Shown here piece by piece: positions 25,069 to 36,107 of a stretch of DNA of 36,107 bases (positions within the stretch are counted from its first letter, which is position 1; every line of letters begins with the position of its first letter). The stretch is from a virus (taxonomy: Duplodnaviria > Heunggongvirae > Uroviricota > Caudoviricetes), in the IMG/VR virus record IMGVR_UViG_2630968500_000009; one strand, given 5' to 3'. The position numbers were made by a program, and so were the translations under genes. The notes beneath the pieces are model-generated. The model searched no databases, was not told the DNA's origin, and worked only from the letters and a program-made list of their open reading frames with translations.

Positions 25069-28470
<3,402 letters not shown>

Positions 28471-28488
28471 ATTTTATAACCCAGAACG

Positions 28489-28512
28489 GGCGTCAGAAAT
28501 GACGCCTTTTTT
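28489..28512 (+). terminator. Rho-independent terminator after J
   Basis: GGCGTC-AGAAAT-GACGCC followed by TTTTTT. Confidence 0.5.
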
Positions 28513-28536
28513 ATTGCAGAAAAGCGAGAGGTAATT

Positions 28537-29136
28537 ATGCGTAAACTTTATGCCGCCATTTTGTCCGCAGCCATTTGTCTGGCCGTATCCGGTGCGCCTG
28601 CATGGGCGTCTGAACATCAGTCCACGCTGAGCGCGGGGTATCTTCATGCCTCGACGAACGTTCCCGGCAGCGATGATCTGAACGGGATTAACGTGAAATA
28701 CCGTTATGAGTTTACGGACACACTGGGGCTGGTGACGTCATTCAGCTATGCAGGAGACAAGAATCGCCAGCTTACCCGTTACAGCGATACCCGCTGGCAT
28801 GAAGATTCCGTGCGTAACCGCTGGTTCAGCGTGATGGCGGGGCCGTCTGTGCGCGTGAATGAATGGTTCAGCGCGTATGCGATGGCGGGTATGGCTTACA
28901 GCCGTGTGTCGACTTTCTCCGGGGATTATCTCCGCGTAACTGACAACAAGGGGAAAACGCACGACGTGCTGACCGGAAGTGATGACGGTCGCCACAGCAA
29001 CACGTCTCTGGCGTGGGGAGCTGGCGTGCAGTTTAACCCGACCGAATCCGTGGCCATTGATGTCGCTTATGAAGGCTCCGGCAGTGGTGACTGGCGCACT
29101 GACGGGTTCATCGTGGGTGTTGGTTATAAATTCTGA
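28537..29136 (+). CDS. lom: Lom-family outer-membrane beta-barrel protein (Ail/PagC family), 199 aa
   Basis: Signal peptide ([13 protein letters not shown]) and C-terminal ...[20 protein letters not shown] as in lambda Lom; N-terminal half differs from the lambda Lom I recall. Confidence 0.8.
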
Positions 29137-29163
29137 TTAGCCAGGTAACACAGTGTTATGACA

Positions 29164-29189
29164 GCCCGCCGGTTCAGGCGGGCTTTTTT
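29164..29189 (+). terminator. Rho-independent terminator after lom
   Basis: GCCCGCC-GGTTCA-GGCGGGC followed by TTTTTT. Confidence 0.5.
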
Positions 29190-29200
29190 GTGGGGTGAAT

Positions 29201-32200
29201 ATGGCAGTAAAAATTTCAGGTGTACTGAAAGACGGCACAGGAAAACCGGTACAGAACTGCACAATCCAGCTGAAAGCAAAACGTAACAGTACCACGGTGG
29301 TGGTGAACACGCTGGCATCTGAAAATCCGGATGAAGCCGGGCGTTACAGTATGGACGTTGAGTACGGTCAGTACAGCGTTATTCTGTTGGTGGAAGGATT
29401 CCCGCCGTCACATGCCGGGACCATCACAGTGTATGAAGATTCCCGACCCGGTACGCTGAATGATTTTCTCGGTGCCATGACGGAGGATGATGCCCGTCCG
29501 GAGGCACTGCGCCGTTTTGAGCTGATGGTGGAAGAGGTGGCGCGTAACGCGTCCGTGGTGGCACAGAACACGGCAGCCGCGAAGAAGTCAGCCAGTGATG
29601 CCAGCACATCAGCCCGTGAGGCGGCAACCCATGCGACTGATGCTGCAGGCTCAGCACGCGCAGCCAGCACGTCAGCCGGACAGGCCGCGTCGTCGGCTCA
29701 GTCAGCGACTTCCAGCGCAGGAACGGCATCAACAAAGGCCACTGAAGCATCAAAAAGTGCTGCCGCTGCAGAGTCCTCAAAAAGCGCGGCAGCTACCAGT
29801 GCCAGTGCCGCGAAAACGTCAGAAACGAATGCTGCAGCGTCACAACAATCAGCAGCCACTTCTGCATCCACCGCGACTACGAAAGCGTCAGAAGCTGCCA
29901 CCTCAGCCCGGGATGCGGCGGCTTCAAAAGAGGCGGCAAAATCATCAGAAACGAACGCATCCTCGAGCGCCAGTAGCGCAGCTTCCTCGGCAACAGCGGC
30001 AGGAAATTCCGCGAAGGCGGCAAAAACGTCAGAGACGAACGCCAGGTCTTCTGAAACGGCAGCGGGACAGAGCGCCTCGGCTGCGGCAGGCTCAAAAACA
30101 GCGGCTGCGTCGTCTGCCAGTGCAGCGTCAACAAGTGCCGGGCAGGCCTCAGCCAGTGCCACCGCCGCCGGAAAATCGGCAGAAAGCGCCGCATCGTCTG
30201 CTTCAACAGCCACAACGAAGGCTGGCGAAGCCACTGAACAGGCCAGCGCAGCAGCGAGGTCTGCTTCCGCAGCGAAGACATCCGAAACGAACGCGAAAGC
30301 GTCGGAAACCAGCGCAGAATCCTCAAAAACGGCTGCCGCATCGTCAGCCAGTTCGGCGTCGTCATCGGCATCATCTGCGTCTGCTTCAAAAGATGAGGCG
30401 ACCAGACAGGCGTCAGCAGCGAAGGGTAGCGCCACGACGGCATCCACGAAGGCGACAGAGGCAGCTGGCAGTGCGACGGCAGCAGCTCAGAGCAAAAGTA
30501 CGGCGGAATCTGCAGCAACGCGCGCTGAGACAGCGGCAAAACGGGCAGAGGATATTGCATCCGCCGTGGCGCTTGAGGATGCGAGCACGACGAAAAAGGG
30601 GATAGTACAGCTCAGCAGTGCGACCAACAGCACTTCCGAGTCACTGGCGGCAACGCCAAAAGCCGTTAAGGCCGCGTATGACCTGGCTAACGGGAAATAC
30701 ACCGCACAGGATGCAACGACAGCACAGAAAGGGATAATCCAGCTAAGCAGTGCGACCAACAGCACGTCTGAAACGCTGGCGGCAACGCCAAAGGCAGTAA
30801 AAGCAGCCAATGACAATGCTGAGAAACGTCTGCAGAAAGATCAGAACGGTGCGGATATCCCTGGCAAAGACACCTTTACGAAAAATATTGGTGCCTGCCG
30901 TGCCTTCGGTGGGTCAGTAAGCACAACAACAGGAAACTGGACGACTGCACAGTTTATCGAGTGGCTGGATTCTCAGGGAGCATTTAACCATCCATACTGG
31001 ATGTGCAAGGGTTCCTGGTCTTATGGCAATAATAAAATCATTACTGATACTGGCTGCGGTAATATTCATCTCGCCGGAGCTGTCATTGAAGTAATGGGGA
31101 TAAAGTCAGCGATGACGATCCGCATTACCACACCGACCACCTCCACTGGTGGTGGAACAACTAACGCCCAGTTTACCTATATTAATCACGGAACAGATTA
31201 TTCACCTGGCTGGCGAAGGGACTATAACTCCAGAAATAAGCCAACGGCATCAGAGATCGGGGCGTTACCGTCAGGTGGAACAGCAGTATCATCAGTTAAT
31301 CTGTCTTCAAAAGGTCGGGTAACCGCGCTGACAGACAATACGCAGGGGGCAACAGGTCTTGAGTTATACGAGGTGTATAACAACGGATATCCAACAGCGT
31401 ATGGAAATATCATTCACCTGAAAGGGATGACAGCCGTTGGCGAAGGTGAGTTACTCATCGGCTGGAGTGGTACAAGCGGTGCTCATGCTCCGGCATTTAT
31501 TCGTTCACGACGGGATACGACCGACGCAAACTGGTCGCCGTGGGCGCAGCTTTACACCTCGGCTCATCCTCCTGCAGAGTTTTATCCAGTCGGTGCACCA
31601 ATCCCGTGGCCATCAGATACCGTTCCGTCTGGTTATGCCCTGATGCAGGGGCAGACTTTTGACAAATCTGCTTACCCGAAACTTGCAGCCGCTTATCCGT
31701 CAGGCGTGATCCCTGATATGCGTGGCTGGACGATTAAGGGCAAGCCCGCCAGTGATCGAGCCGTATTGTCTCAGGAACAGGACGGCATTAAATCACACAC
31801 CCACAGCGCCAGCGTATCCAGTACGGATTTGGGGACGAAAACCACATCGTCGTTTGATTACGGCACTAAATCCACGAATAACACTGGTGCGCATACCCAT
31901 AGTGTTAGCGGTACGGCTGCTTCAGCCGGTGCACATACCCATTCGATGACATTTGTTTCAGGTGGTTCCAGTGGTGCTCCGGGAAGTGGATCACCTGATT
32001 ACTCTAAATACAGTGTTAACACTTCTTCTGCAGGCGCTCATACGCACTCTGTATCGGGTACTGCTGCAAGCGCAGGTGCACACGCACATACTGTCGGTAT
32101 TGGTGCTCATACGCACTCCGTTGCGATTGGTTCACATGGACATACCATCACCGTTAACGCTGCTGGTAACGCGGAAAACACCGTCAAAAACATCGCATTT

Positions 32201-32224
32201 AACTATATTGTGAGGCTTGCATAA
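29201..32224 (+). CDS. stf: Side tail fibre protein Stf (about 1007 aa from ATG 29201)
   Basis: [26 protein letters not shown]... N-terminus as in lambda Stf; long Ala/Ser/Thr-rich shaft; C-terminal HxH repeats (GAHTHSVSG...). Confidence 0.85.
29530..30610 (+). repeat. Degenerate tandem repeats encoding the Ala/Ser/Thr-rich Stf shaft
   Basis: Recurrent units such as AAKTSETNA / [16 protein letters not shown] at roughly 100-130 bp periodicity; low-complexity composition. Confidence 0.5.
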
Positions 32225-32799
32225 TGGCATTCAGAATGAGTGAACAACCACGGACCATAAAAATTTATAATCTGCTGGCCGGAACTAATGAATTTATTGG
32301 TGAAGGTGACGCATATATTCCGCCTCATACAGGTCTGCCAGCAAACAGTATCGATATTGCACCGCCAGATATTCCGGCAGGCTTCGTGGCTGTTTTCAAC
32401 AGTGATGAGGCATCGTGGCATCTCGTTGAAGATCATCGGGGTAAAACGGTTTATGACGTGGCTTCCGGCGACGCGTTATTTATTTCTGAACTCGGTCCGT
32501 TACCGGAAAATGTTACCTGGTTATCGCCGGGAGGGGAATATCAGAAGTGGAACGGCACAGCCTGGGTGAAGGATACGGAAGCAGAAAAACTGTTCCGGAT
32601 CCGGGAGGCGGAAGAAACAAAAAACAGCCTGATGCAGGTAGCCAGTGAGCATATTGCGCCGCTTCAGGATGCTGCAGATCTGGAAATTGCAACGGAGGAA
32701 GAAATCTCGTTGCTGGAAGCATGGAAAAAGTATCGGGTATTGCTGAACCGTGTTGATACGTCAACTGCACAGGATATTGAATGGCCAGCACTGCCGTAG
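32224..32799 (+). CDS. tfa: Tail fibre assembly chaperone Tfa (191 aa)
   Basis: Start overlaps stf stop (ATAATGG); sequence resembles lambda/K-12 Tfa proteins. Confidence 0.85.
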
Positions 32800-32896
32800 G
32801 GTAAAACATATAAATTCTATAATTAGATGTATCTTTCCATTTACGGCAAGGAAGGTGGCTTGGAAGACGTAAAGCATCTCACACCGAGATTATTTT

Positions 32897-33487
32897 TTAT
32901 ATGTCAGGTGTCTGAAGTTTTGCTTTGGCTCTTAAAATGGTTTGCCGCGAGGTTTTGAATTCCCGGGCAATGGCACTTATACTTACACCTGACTTAATTC
33001 GTTCGAATACCACCTGTTTCTGTTCTTCATTTAACACAGGTGGTCGACCAAAACGTTTCCCTGCGCCCCGGGCTCTTACTATCCCGGAATGAGTGCGTTC
33101 AAGTAAAAGGTCTCGTTCAAATTCAGCGACTGCTGAAATTACTTGCATCATCATTTTTCCTGTTGGACTGGTCAGGTCAATGCCCCCCAATGCTAAGCAA
33201 TGCACTCTGATACCTGTTTCGGTCAGTTGTTCCACTGTTTTCCTGATATCCATTGCATTACAACCAAGGCGATCCAGTTTTGTCACAATCAATTGATCAC
33301 CACATTTCAGGCGAGCAAGCAACCGGTTAAAACCAGGACGCTCACTGGTTGCTGCTGAGCCGCTAATGTGTTCTTCGATTATTTGCTGAGGTTTGATTTT
33401 AAAACCTGCACTTTCGATTTCCCGGCGTTGATTTTCGGTGGTCTGATCCAGCGTTGATATCCGACAGTAAGCAAAAATTCGAGACAT
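32897..33487 (-). CDS. pinQ: Serine recombinase, resolvase/invertase family (196 aa)
   Basis: N-terminal catalytic motif (YCRISTLDQ with the active-site Ser) and C-terminal HTH; sits beside tfa as pinQ does in Qin-type prophages. Confidence 0.75.
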
Positions 33488-33803
33488 AGTGAGACTCTAT
33501 ACGAAATTGGTGTTCATATCATAATGCATCTCAGAAAATAATTTTGATTATTTTTGTGCATATTTGTATGTACACGTTCGAAAATAAACGAATGCGTATG
33601 CAACCCCGTAATTTTGGTGAGACCCAAAATCGATTTTGTGAAAAATGGCTTTAACTCGGTTTGTTTTTCGAGTTCCGGGCGGACTCAAGGAAGAAGAATA
33701 GTGTTGCGTGTTATTTTAACCAGATTTCAAGTTGTTTGGTCGTGGAAAAGTGGAGCAAAATGTTGTTAAAGTGGAAAAATGATAAAAAAGTAAGTTTATT
33801 ATA

Positions 33804-34037
33804 TTACATTTTACCATTTAAATTTTGGTTGTCTTTAAGAACTGATATCGCTGTTTGTAATAATTCTTTGTTATCCAGCCATGATTTTTTCTTTATGTTT
33901 CCTTCAATGTAATCAAGCAATGTTCTGGTATTGATAGGTCTTCCCTGTTTTGCTACTTCCACTACAGCATCCCCTAGGATAATTCTTACTTCAGGAAGCT
34001 GCGCAGGGAACCACTTTAGGGTGTCTTTTGATTTCAT
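33804..34037 (-). CDS. ydfK: Small protein YdfK/YnaE-like (77 aa from internal ATG)
   Basis: MKSKDTLKWFPAQLPEVRIILGDAVVEVAKQG...; AAGGA SD upstream of ATG 34037; AT-rich long leader. Confidence 0.55.
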   Translation of the reverse strand: MKSKDTLKWFPAQLPEVRIILGDAVVEVAKQGRPINTRTLLDYIEGNIKKKSWLDNKELLQTAISVLKDNQNLNGKM

Positions 34038-34823
34038 GAAGATATTCCTTAAAATATTATTGATTTTCATTGCGATATTGTATGTCTGATTCAGGATATG
34101 TTGACTTATACATCGGTTTTGTCTGGGTTATTGGATATGCCAATCCCTAATTTTATTAGGGCATGACTAAAAATGCTGAATATGATAAGGAGAGATGTGA
34201 TTATCAGTATGCTGTTCATATAGCCTCGAATTAGTAATGTGTTATATATGATATAGTTGACAATTTTTATCTTGGGTGTTCTTAAAGTTCGTAGATAAAC
34301 ATTGTCGTTTCAGGTATACAGGAATGCTAACAGGTGGCAGCAAAAATCAGGCGGTTTATGGCGCAAGCTGAAGCGGCAACTGCAAACTATCTTATGCAGA
34401 GACTCTACACGGATTGGGTTTAAAAGTATACATAGATAACAGTTTTTATCTGAAAAATAAAAATATCAAGGTGATATAGCCTATATGCCTTTGATGCGGA
34501 GGAATGAATGTGATGGGAGTGATGTATCTGAATAGTTGAAAAACCGCAGACACGCCTTATGCAAGAACGTGCTGCGGTTGGCTGGTAAATTTTTCGATAG
34601 TGTGAGTATTGAATGATTTCCAGCCGTTCTTGATTTTACGCATAAATCCATGAAAAAACTACTTATCTGTTGGGGAGTTTTTTTTGGGGCATATATGGGA
34701 CATAAATAGGCCCCAGATAGACACTGAGATCGAACTTAGGATGCTTTTTAAAAAATGCAACTATCTGAAAAAACCTAGAAAACGCCAAGGAAACCACAGG
34801 ATGGGAAAAAACACCTGTGAATT

Positions 34824-36107
34824 ATGGATTTCCAGTTATATTCGCTCGGCGCAGCGTTAGTGTTTCATGAAATATTTTTTCCTGAATCATCAACGGCAAT
34901 GGCGTTAATTCTGGCAATGGGAACCTACGGTGCAGGTTATGTGGCGCGTATTGTCGGAGCATTTATTTTCGGCAAAATGGGCGACAGAATAGGGCGTAAA
35001 AAAGTGCTCTTTATTACCATCACCATGATGGGGATCTGTACCACCTTAATTGGTGTGTTACCGACCTATGCACAGATTGGTGTTTTTGCACCCATCTTGC
35101 TGGTGACGTTGCGTATTATTCAGGGGTTGGGTGCAGGTGCGGAAATTTCCGGTGCCGGTACGATGCTGGCGGAATATGCGCCAAAAGGTAAGCGCGGAAT
35201 TATCTCCTCATTTGTGGCTATGGGAACTAACTGCGGAACCTTGAGCGCAACGGCAATCTGGGCCTTTATGTTCTTCATTCTCAGTAAAGAGGAACTGCTG
35301 GCGTGGGGATGGCGTATACCGTTCCTGGCGAGCGTTGTCGTGATGGTCTTTGCTATCTGGTTGCGTATGAATCTGAAAGAAAGCCCGGTCTTTGAGAAGG
35401 TTAACGACAGTAACCAACCGACAGCAAAACCTGCACCTGCTGGTAGCATGTTCCAGAGCAAATCCTTCTGGCTGGCAACAGGGCTGCGTTTTGGTCAGGC
35501 GGGTAACTCCGGGTTAATTCAGACTTTCCTTGCAGGCTATTTAGTGCAGACGTTATTGTTTAACAAAGCAATTCCAACAGATGCATTGATGATCAGTTCG
35601 ATTCTCGGCTTTATGACCATTCCGTTCCTTGGTTGGTTATCCGATAAAATTGGTCGCCGGATCCCGTATATTATTATGAATACCTCCGCGATTGTGCTGG
35701 CATGGCCAATGCTTTCTATCATTGTAGATAAAAGCTATGCCCCGAGCACCATTATGGTTGCACTGATTGTGATTCATAACTGTGCGGTGCTGGGATTATT
35801 TGCTCTGGAAAACATTACCATGGCAGAAATGTTCGGCTGTAAAAACCGCTTTACCCGGATGGCTATTTCTAAAGAAATTGGTGGTCTTATCGCTTCCGGT
35901 TTTGGTCCTATCCTGGCGGGTATTTTCTGCACCATGACGGAATCCTGGTATCCGATCGCCATTATGATCATGGCATATTCAGTGATTGGTTTAATCTCTG
36001 CGCTGAAAATACCAGAGGTGAAAGACCGTGATTTAAGTGCGCTGGAAGACGCTGCGGAAGATCAACCGCGTGTTGTAAGAGCTGCGCAACCTTCCAGAAG
36101 TCTGTAA
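34824..36107 (+). CDS. ydfJ: MFS transporter, metabolite:H+ symporter family, 5'-truncated at prophage junction
   Basis: Starts inside the conserved first TM segment (MDFQLYSLGAALVFHEIFFP...) and has the GDRIGRKK loop motif; an in-frame stop lies directly upstream (34818-34820), so the native N-terminus (about 25-30 residues) is absent. Confidence 0.7.
   Translation: MDFQLYSLGAALVFHEIFFPESSTAMALILAMGTYGAGYVARIVGAFIFGKMGDRIGRKKVLFITITMMGICTTLIGVLPTYAQIGVFAPILLVTLRIIQGLGAGAEISGAGTMLAEYAPKGKRGIISSFVAMGTNCGTLSATAIWAFMFFILSKEELLAWGWRIPFLASVVVMVFAIWLRMNLKESPVFEKVNDSNQPTAKPAPAGSMFQSKSFWLATGLRFGQAGNSGLIQTFLAGYLVQTLLFNKAIPTDALMISSILGFMTIPFLGWLSDKIGRRIPYIIMNTSAIVLAWPMLSIIVDKSYAPSTIMVALIVIHNCAVLGLFALENITMAEMFGCKNRFTRMAISKEIGGLIASGFGPILAGIFCTMTESWYPIAIMIMAYSVIGLISALKIPEVKDRDLSALEDAAEDQPRVVRAAQPSRSL

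Follow-up and report, generated by a model that had tools for sequence, protein, structure and literature searches.

The prophage recombinase PinQ of Escherichia coli: a probable degenerating resolvase cassette beside the tail-fibre genes

Introduction

Among small serine recombinases, the best-described enzymes that are encoded next to phage tail-fibre genes are the Gin, Hin, Cin and Pin DNA invertases, which share about 60% or more identity with one another and whose systems are recognized by two inverted 26-bp crossover sites (12+2+12, ...AAACC NN GGTTT...) around a segment next to the gene, which carries alternative tail-fibre C-termini and copies of tfa. These invertases depend on Fis, which binds a recombinational enhancer that usually lies in the 5' part of the invertase gene. 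The resolvases of the Tn3 and γδ type form a second point of reference, since the assembly of their res synaptosome needs the R (2-3') interface, with R2, R32, K54 and E56 as its key residues (PMC9943657). The subject of this study is pinQ, the recombinase gene that lies beside tfa in a 36,107-base stretch of DNA (IMG/VR record IMGVR_UViG_2630968500_000009; hereafter ‘the window’, meaning that whole stretch), which covers the late region and right end of a lambdoid prophage that is inserted in ydfJ, known in Escherichia coli as the Qin site.

The consequences of disabling or deregulating a resolvase have been described in some detail. Mutants in the R interface carry out less than 0.1% resolution, and the combination R2A/E56K blocks recombination between two res sites (PMC9943657). 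In Tn3 resolvase, the substitutions R71A and R71K abolish recombination and slow DNA cleavage by about 1000-fold, which places R71 among six residues with this behaviour, and both catalytic and R-interface mutants are still able to bind site I (PMC2794168). Conversely, ‘activated’ resolvases, such as the NM Tn3 resolvase (R2A E56K G101S D102Y M103I Q105L), recombine bare pairs of site I and yield inversions (PMC2794168).

Compared with these systems, pinQ is probably best regarded as an orphaned, degenerating resolvase cassette whose product, under weak selection, still binds DNA and has lost most or all of its catalytic activity. The existence of the gene, its orphan status and a claimed role in trans are already in the literature; as far as could be found, its placement in a family of res-bearing recombinases, the eroded res upstream of it, the replacement of a catalytic arginine by cysteine and the loss of R-interface residues are new.

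Family placement of PinQ

The product of pinQ matches the Pfam families Resolvase (PF00239, E 2.5e-36) and HTH_7 (PF02796, E 3.8e-11), and no specific NCBIfam family scores above its cutoff. K-12 PinR has the same amino-acid sequence (100% identity) and K-12 PinQ matches it at 99%, and the gene carries the RefSeq label pinQ in a genome with 100% identity (NZ_CP042901.1). An initial annotation of the window had taken it for a Pin/Gin/Cin-type invertase. By descent that premise is wrong: identity to PinE is 39% and to the invertase of phage HK225 37% (35-39% across the P1, D6 and HK225 enzymes), short of the value of roughly 60% that holds the Gin/Hin/Cin/Pin group together, compared with 60-85% to a family of resolvases that are associated with res sites. 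Against solved structures Gin gives the best match (E 2.7e-29), slightly ahead of the γδ and Tn3 resolvases (E about 1e-22).

The family to which PinQ belongs comprises proteins of 190-200 residues with Resolvase and HTH_7 domains, at least 60% identity to PinQ and a recognition helix of the form T(S/T)RQTI(L/M)R; compared with 75 such proteins from other species, PinQ is 60-81% identical. Outside prophages the closest relatives, at 83-85%, reside on E. coli plasmids (250 records), followed at 72-78% by proteins of Klebsiella and Enterobacter plasmids; further relatives are found in Aeromonas (54%) and Phaeobacter (49%), and everything else falls below 40%. The family is very large, proteobacterial and for the most part carried on plasmids, with at least 1,779 plasmid records that hold a protein at least 60% identical to PinQ, 572 loci in a scan of one genome per species, and at least 7,765 clusters in the protein database at E <= 1e-40, all of them generically named. 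Annotated plasmids carry the gene by itself, in some cases close to parAB or to genes for toxin-antitoxin systems or resistance, and the plasmid stretches shown around family genes include no annotated Tn3-type transposase. A search of the literature for the half-site sequence described below together with ‘resolvase’ returned no relevant paper, and no characterized member of the family was found.

The res site and its erosion at pinQ

The upstream DNA of 80 family loci other than pinQ was aligned and compared with 1,600 shuffled sequences, using mismatch thresholds that were picked after the data had been seen. The approximately 120 bp upstream of the family genes contain three Tn3-like res subsites at fixed spacing, all assembled from a single half-site, TGTMCGAAA. 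Site I is an inverted pair of 26 bp with an 8-bp centre (TGTMCGAAA-N8-TTTCGKACA, consensus TGTCCGAAACCGACCGGTTTCGGACA), located at about -114 from the ATG; site II, likewise an inverted pair, has a centre of 13-15 bp, lies at about -74 and is followed by a TATAAT box; and site III, near -32, consists of the direct repeats TTCGKACA-N5-TTCGKAC. With three or fewer mismatches, site I is present in 63 of the 80 loci (0/1,600 shuffles), site II in 66 (1/1,600) and site III in 69 (15/1,600), and all three subsites are present together, at three or fewer mismatches each, in 62. The family half-site TGTCCGAAA is almost the sequence of γδ site I-left.

The catalytic residues and the equivalents of the four R-interface residues R2, R32, K54 and E56 are likewise conserved, in 74-75 of 75 family members. 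Because three subsites built from one half-site, an embedded promoter, conserved R-interface residues and carriage on plasmids occur together, the natural reading of the family, by analogy with the Tn3 enzymes, is that of a res-dependent multimer or cointegrate resolvase, whose members would still be working. At three family loci (L027, L036 and L054) site III and the gene are kept and unrelated DNA stands in place of sites I and II, as would be expected if recombination or insertion breakpoints fall inside res.

At pinQ, the corresponding 125 bp still align with plasmid res, with their half-sites eroded (Table 1). The best matches to sites I, II and III have 6, 4 and 4 mismatches respectively, values that are alike in the window, K-12 pinQ and K-12 pinR, and the three intact subsites that characterize the family are absent. 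The crossover site has suffered most: the best match to site I within 160 bp upstream of the gene differs at 6 of 18 positions, which is inside the range of the shuffles; its position weight matrix (PWM) dyad score is 1.0, as against approximately 34 for a family dyad in which both half-sites have the median score of 17 bits; and the centre, CCGRYCGG in the family, reads TCGTTTAT. A site II match with four or fewer mismatches arises in 16/1600 shuffles. For site III, 66 of the 80 family loci have two or fewer mismatches. No intact family-type site I dyad exists anywhere in the window, where single family half-sites are found at the frequency expected by chance (14 observed, 13.7 expected).

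Two further features of this region deserve description. A possible new dyad within the eroded site I (ACGCATTCG-N8-CGAACGTGT, with 7 of 9 positions symmetric by eye) was rejected, as it is not kept in the variant alleles L014 and L094. Between 125 and 150 bp upstream of pinQ, just past the eroded site I, lies a perfect 14-bp palindrome, CAAAATCGATTTTG (33625-33638), which overlaps an inverted repeat with a 7-bp stem, ATTTTGG/CCAAAAT (33611-33629). In the same two variant alleles the palindrome reads AAAAATCGATTTTT, with both arms altered together, a pattern that would fit a conserved binding site for a protein, or an RNA hairpin, specific to the prophage lineage.

Replacement of catalytic and interface residues

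Residue equivalences were taken from HMMER and MAFFT alignments, at approximately 35% identity. Four substitutions (R35Q, E61K, R76C and T113M; Table 1) are specific to the PinQ clade and fall at positions that are 100% invariant in the rest of the family. The catalytic set (Y6, R8, S10, Q14, Q19, D/E36, R45, D67, R68 and R71 in γδ numbering) is complete in PinQ except for R71, the equivalent of position 76. That position is occupied by arginine in all 75 family members; among the loci that were fetched, 80 recombinases have arginine and 7 PinQ-type copies have cysteine; and among the 120 best homologues, 112 have arginine and 5 have cysteine, the five all being of PinQ type. Cysteine is also found in K-12 PinQ, K-12 PinR and the more divergent L090 allele described below, and indeed in every PinQ-type copy examined. 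By analogy with R71A and R71K in Tn3 resolvase, Cys76 would be expected to cripple catalysis.

At the four R-interface positions PinQ reads R3, Q35, R59 and K61, so that two of the four are lost, and K-12 PinQ additionally has Q3. In contrast to these changes, the recognition residues of the helix-turn-helix (R181, T183 and R186) are the same in PinQ and in the family. PinQ further differs from the family at the equivalents of M103 and V107. In resolvases, activating mutations cluster in that region. Taken with the eroded sites, the residues that PinQ has lost make it very unlikely, on sequence grounds, that the protein can perform res-dependent resolution.

Alleles, selection and distribution of pinQ

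A second allele, L090, which also occupies the Qin locus, is 85% identical to PinQ in protein sequence, carries the same four substitutions and has similarly eroded upstream DNA (the upstream comparison with L090 was made on displayed sequences, for which ungapped positional identity is meaningless). Since the substitutions are common to an allele that has diverged by 15%, the changes are old. The two Cys76 alleles are separated by 33 nonsynonymous and 24 synonymous differences, and a simple Nei-Gojobori count over the 196 codons puts their ratio of nonsynonymous to synonymous substitution (dN/dS) at 0.39, significantly below the neutral value (p=0.0014). The corresponding values for family members with an intact res are 0.02-0.09, so that the ratio for the PinQ alleles is 5-20 times higher.

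Of 5,426 complete E. coli genomes, 2,873 carry the pinQ module, in most cases with at least 99% identity. In some of these genomes IS1 is inserted in the 841-bp module (hits H161 and H163), splitting the match into two pieces across 1,617 bp; such insertions suggest that pinQ is dispensable. Some copies are hybrids (P0004-P0008; L094 5780-6591), in which an N-terminus of plasmid type, with Arg76, is joined to a C-terminus of PinQ type; these sequences offer evidence of gene conversion between the plasmid and prophage pools. One of the hybrids is a prophage copy at a prfC-dinI locus, which has plasmid-like sites II-R and III and an eroded site I.

Interpretation and alternative explanations

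The history that is proposed for pinQ begins with a plasmid-type res/resolvase cassette, which lambdoid phages of the Rac/Qin type would have captured in their b region (tail-fibre genes to attP). [quoted passage not shown] Given these losses of sites and residues, the protein would have no target in cis within the prophage, would neither flip stf-tfa nor act as a res-dependent resolvase, and would exert its effects, if any, in trans. The initial annotation had raised the possibility that the recombinase is an ‘orphan’, and in that respect it was right.

Several observations weigh against this reading. The open reading frame is intact and at least 99% conserved in approximately 2,600 E. coli records, the gene is present in at least 11 sequenced temperate phages, and dN/dS is significantly below 1; for these reasons pinQ is not a neutral relic. 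The dN/dS estimate is itself rough at 196 codons, and conversion of plasmid and prophage copies by one another, as in the hybrid alleles, may skew it. The label ‘res’ for the upstream repeats of the family is given by analogy, and the predicted effect of Cys76 is extrapolated from alanine and lysine substitutions in an enzyme that is 35% identical. When K-12 PinQ (99% identical) was overproduced, the share of inverted e14 P segments is reported to have risen from about 30% to 88%, with protection against phage T2, and deletion of pinQ to have sensitized cells to that phage (Kirigo et al. 2025, PMC12529663); these findings argue for genuine recombinase activity.

The latter results form the basis of the strongest alternative, namely that PinQ is an active invertase that works in trans, flipping Gin-type tail-fibre segments that belong to other prophages, with the 1.8-kb e14 P segment as the chief case, and thereby leading to a chimeric protein that blocks T2 adsorption. 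T2 survivors that produced PinQ carried the P inversion, and quantitative PCR found 88% inverted segments with pCA24N-pinQ as compared with 26-30% in controls (PMC12529663); the effect of PinQ disappeared in ΔstfP, ΔstfE and Δe14 strains, and T2 induced pinQ/pinR 14-fold (PMC12529663). The suggestion in the initial annotation that the recombinase might act on another locus in trans thus has published support for the K-12 protein, and is not of a kind that can be refuted in silico. The e14 pix sites are best or near-best matches to family site I if the dyad is allowed to be 1-2 bp shorter (rank 1 of approximately 5,475 positions). The natural equivalent of E56K and the changes at the M103 and V107 positions recall activated resolvases that recombine bare crossover sites (PMC2794168), and such changes make a weak, deregulated activity of PinQ in trans possible.

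Set against these points, the P segment is locked in a ΔpinE strain that is pinQ+ pinR+ (PMC12529663). The same paper describes no catalytic-serine mutant, no test of a PinQ plasmid in a ΔpinE strain and no reaction in vitro; because these controls are absent from it, PinE could be the enzyme that catalyses the inversion of P. PinQ has cysteine at the position of the catalytic R71, and the pix half-sites score no more than 1.3 bits, as against a family median of 17 bits. As for the proposed target, the matching genome has an empty e14 attachment site at icd, with iraM-icd-rluE contiguous, so that the published target is missing from that site, and a complete P segment of K-12 type with pinE is present in 170 of 5,426 genomes, compared with 2,873 for the pinQ module. 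On balance, invertase activity in trans seems unlikely, though it is the most probable of the alternatives.

A more speculative proposal is as follows. The PinQ/PinR clade might represent a natural case of resolvase deregulation, in which the accessory sites and the R interface were lost and the start of helix E was altered, leaving either a low-activity recombinase that is independent of its context or a non-catalytic decoy; a prophage could use such a protein in trans, whether for inverting segments of foreign origin, as the e14 report describes, or for disturbing the res-dependent resolution of multimers of plasmids that encode its relatives of 85% identity. This proposal is rather doubtful at present.

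PinQ might also have been exapted as a purely non-catalytic protein that binds half-sites of the TGTMCGAAA type, whether as a repressor of its own promoter or as a prophage-encoded anti-plasmid decoy that occupies the intact res sites of incoming plasmids whose resolvases are 85% identical and so poisons their multimer resolution. Such a role would account for the conservation of R181, T183 and R186 in a protein that has lost catalytic and R-interface residues, and for the residual purifying selection; the retention of site I binding by the corresponding Tn3 mutants (PMC2794168) is in keeping with it. Plasmids that carry an intact res and enzymes of 83-85% identity are common in E. coli (the 250 records mentioned above), and the plasmid/prophage hybrid alleles indicate that both pools meet in shared cells. 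Purifying selection is weak, however, the module is interrupted by IS1 in some strains, and the published phenotype of PinQ concerns phage and not plasmids; a dedicated repressor or decoy function is accordingly judged improbable. The reading of pinQ as a decayed resolvase cassette is retained here, its product today being most likely a DNA-binding protein that carries out little or no strand exchange and acts, if at all, in trans.

Absence of an invertible segment

The observation from which the analysis started, that a recombinase lies beside tfa with no detectable invertible segment, is confirmed. A tblastn search with Tfa against the whole window returns tfa only, in agreement with the earlier statement that there is a single tfa and no inverted second copy, and a search with the last 350 residues of Stf returns only stf itself; because these searches recover just the genes themselves, the window contains no second or inverted copy of either. 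Crossover sites resembling gix or hix, which the initial annotation had been unable to find, did not emerge from the searches for inverted repeats either. A degenerate consensus for the Gin/Hin/Cin/Pin crossover sites, TTNTCNNAAACCNNGGTTTNNGANAA, and the 16-mer e14 repeat, CCTTCTCCCAAACCAA, each give 0 matches at three or fewer mismatches across all 36,107 bases. Inverted-repeat searches of 28400-36107 and 32600-34200 yield just short pairs, 70-90% complementary, of a kind that is typical of chance, and direct-repeat searches around stf-tfa-pin yield chance-level pairs only. One pair of 15 nucleotides that flanks pinQ (32868-32882 and 33489-33503), 80% complementary, was likewise judged to be due to chance. 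The DNA upstream of pinQ has no second copy in the window, which holds the single eroded copy. Neither the two inverted 26-bp crossover sites nor the alternative tail-fibre cassette of a Gin-type system is present in the window, and a tail-fibre switch acting in cis is ruled out.

Since PinQ is not an invertase by descent, an invertible stf-tfa segment was never to be expected, and its absence at pinQ is explained and is not an anomaly. That the gene might be a former Gin-type switch, its segment lost or fixed through deletion of the second stf'-tfa' half and one crossover site (a possibility that the initial annotation had entertained), is suggested by its position beside stf-tfa, which resembles that in Mu, P1 and e14, and by the true Gin-type invertase that HK225 carries in the same slot, but it can be dismissed as extremely improbable: nothing is left in the window of a second tfa or stf end, and nothing resembling a crossover site turns up there even when three mismatches are allowed; the 3' end of pinQ faces tfa, whereas in e14 it is the 5' end of pinE that abuts the P segment, in the opposite orientation; in phylogenetic terms PinQ falls outside the invertases, and the DNA upstream of its gene shows homology to a res site; the tfa-pin-ydfK-ynfT arrangement is shared by Rac, Qin and free phages; no close relative (more than 90% identical, with Cys76) has been seen so far beside alternative tail-fibre ends that are bounded by inverted crossover sites; and no inversions were detected by BLAST in Qin or Rac (Kirigo et al., PMC12529663).

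The HK225 gene (L003 6998-7546; 37% identity to PinQ) is of some interest in its own right. It lies in the equivalent slot of the b region, between tail fibre/tfa/dinI and attP, with no second tail-fibre cassette annotated, and may be another orphan invertase.

Prophage context

Positions 31500-34900 of the window, the segment that was searched, are 100% identical to E. coli strain CFSAN061762 (NZ_CP042901.1). The gene order is J (25072-28470), lom, stf, tfaQ, pinQ (on the minus strand), ydfK, ynfT and a 5'-truncated ydfJ; within it, tfa-pin-ydfK-ynfT is a conserved end module of Rac/Qin-type prophages, with the same order in K-12 Qin and Rac. In the identical genome ydfJ (34824-36107 in the window) is annotated without its N-terminus, and the prophage is therefore inserted within ydfJ, with its right end just upstream of approximately 34.8 kb. 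The centre of stf (29570-30560) is a long low-complexity region rich in Ala, Ser and Thr, which gives rise to long spurious open reading frames, both on the opposite strand and in other frames. The similarity of many genomes to the pinQ module sets in within tfa, about 110 bp before its 3' end (at approximately 32680-32688 in the window); this mosaic boundary suggests that the C-terminus of tfa travels with pin-ydfK-ynfT.

Table 1. Coordinates of pinQ, its substituted residues, the res remnants upstream of it and the neighbouring genes (window positions)
Feature	Position	Strand	Description	Basis
pinQ	32897..33487	-	Intact 196-residue small serine recombinase; catalytic domain and C-terminal helix-turn-helix	Open reading frame and Pfam
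R76C	33260..33262 (codon 76, TGT)	-	γδ R71; catalysis	HMMER alignment to γδ resolvase and Gin
R35Q	33383..33385 (codon 35, CAA)	-	γδ R32; R interface	Family Arg 75/75
E61K	33305..33307 (codon 61, AAA)	-	γδ E56; R interface	Family Glu 75/75
T113M			γδ V107; start of helix E	Position invariant in family
Putative res site I remnant (crossover site)	33575..33600	-	CATACGCATTCGTTTATTTTCGAACG; family TGTMCGAAA-N8-TTTCGKACA	Alignment with plasmid homologues
Putative res site II remnant	33529..33560	-	TGCACAAAA-N14-TTTCTGAGA	Homologous position -73; 4/18 mismatches
Putative res site III remnant	33499..33518	-	TATGAACA-N5-TTCGTAT; family direct repeats TTCGKACA-N5-TTCGKAC	Homologous position -31; 4/15 mismatches
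stf	29195-32224		Upstream of tfa; full-length, 1009 residues	
tfaQ	32224..32799	+	Sole tail-fibre assembly gene; convergent with pinQ; context, not target	PF02413
ydfK	33804..34070	-	Cold-shock protein; next gene after pinQ	RefSeq annotation of identical genome

Implications

In about half of complete E. coli genomes, pinQ or pinR is present and routinely annotated as a ‘DNA invertase’, an annotation that should change. A mechanism for anti-phage defence published in 2025 builds on the invertase reading, and the sequence evidence favours descent from res-dependent resolvases, with loss of the site, of a key catalytic arginine and of the regulatory interface. The analysis also defines a large, uncharacterized family of resolvases with a clean res of three subsites, which should be of use to plasmid biologists and could supply recombinase parts.

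Comparison with described systems

The nearest described genes are those for K-12 PinR (b1374, Rac) and K-12 PinQ (b1545, Qin), whose neighbours are arranged as in the window (stf-tfa-pin-ydfK/ynaE-ynfT/ynaM-prophage end), and the chromosomal site is that of Qin (ydfJ). In contrast to K-12 Qin, which is a remnant, the prophage of the window appears complete, with J, lom and a full-length stf.

Gin, Hin, Cin and PinE resemble PinQ in being small, phage-borne serine recombinases with HTH_7 that adjoin tail-fibre genes. They differ from it in overall sequence (37-39% identity), in the recognition helix (VGVSTLYK in the invertases, TSRQTILR in PinQ) and in the orientation of the gene, and they are without the R-interface residues that the PinQ family conserves.

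The Tn3 and γδ resolvases share with the PinQ family their domain architecture, the placement of three subsites just upstream of the gene with an embedded promoter, and the catalytic and R-interface residues. Identity is only about 35%, however, the family subsites measure 26 and 32 bp, site III of the family is a direct repeat, and no Tn3-type transposase adjoins the gene in the annotated plasmid examples. The gene pinQ itself departs further from these enzymes, in its eroded sites and in the replaced equivalents of R71, R32 and E56. PinQ also approaches the activated resolvases exemplified by NM Tn3 resolvase: it has a natural equivalent of E56K, has lost R32 and is changed at the M103 and V107 positions. 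The activated enzymes, unlike PinQ, keep R71, where PinQ has cysteine.

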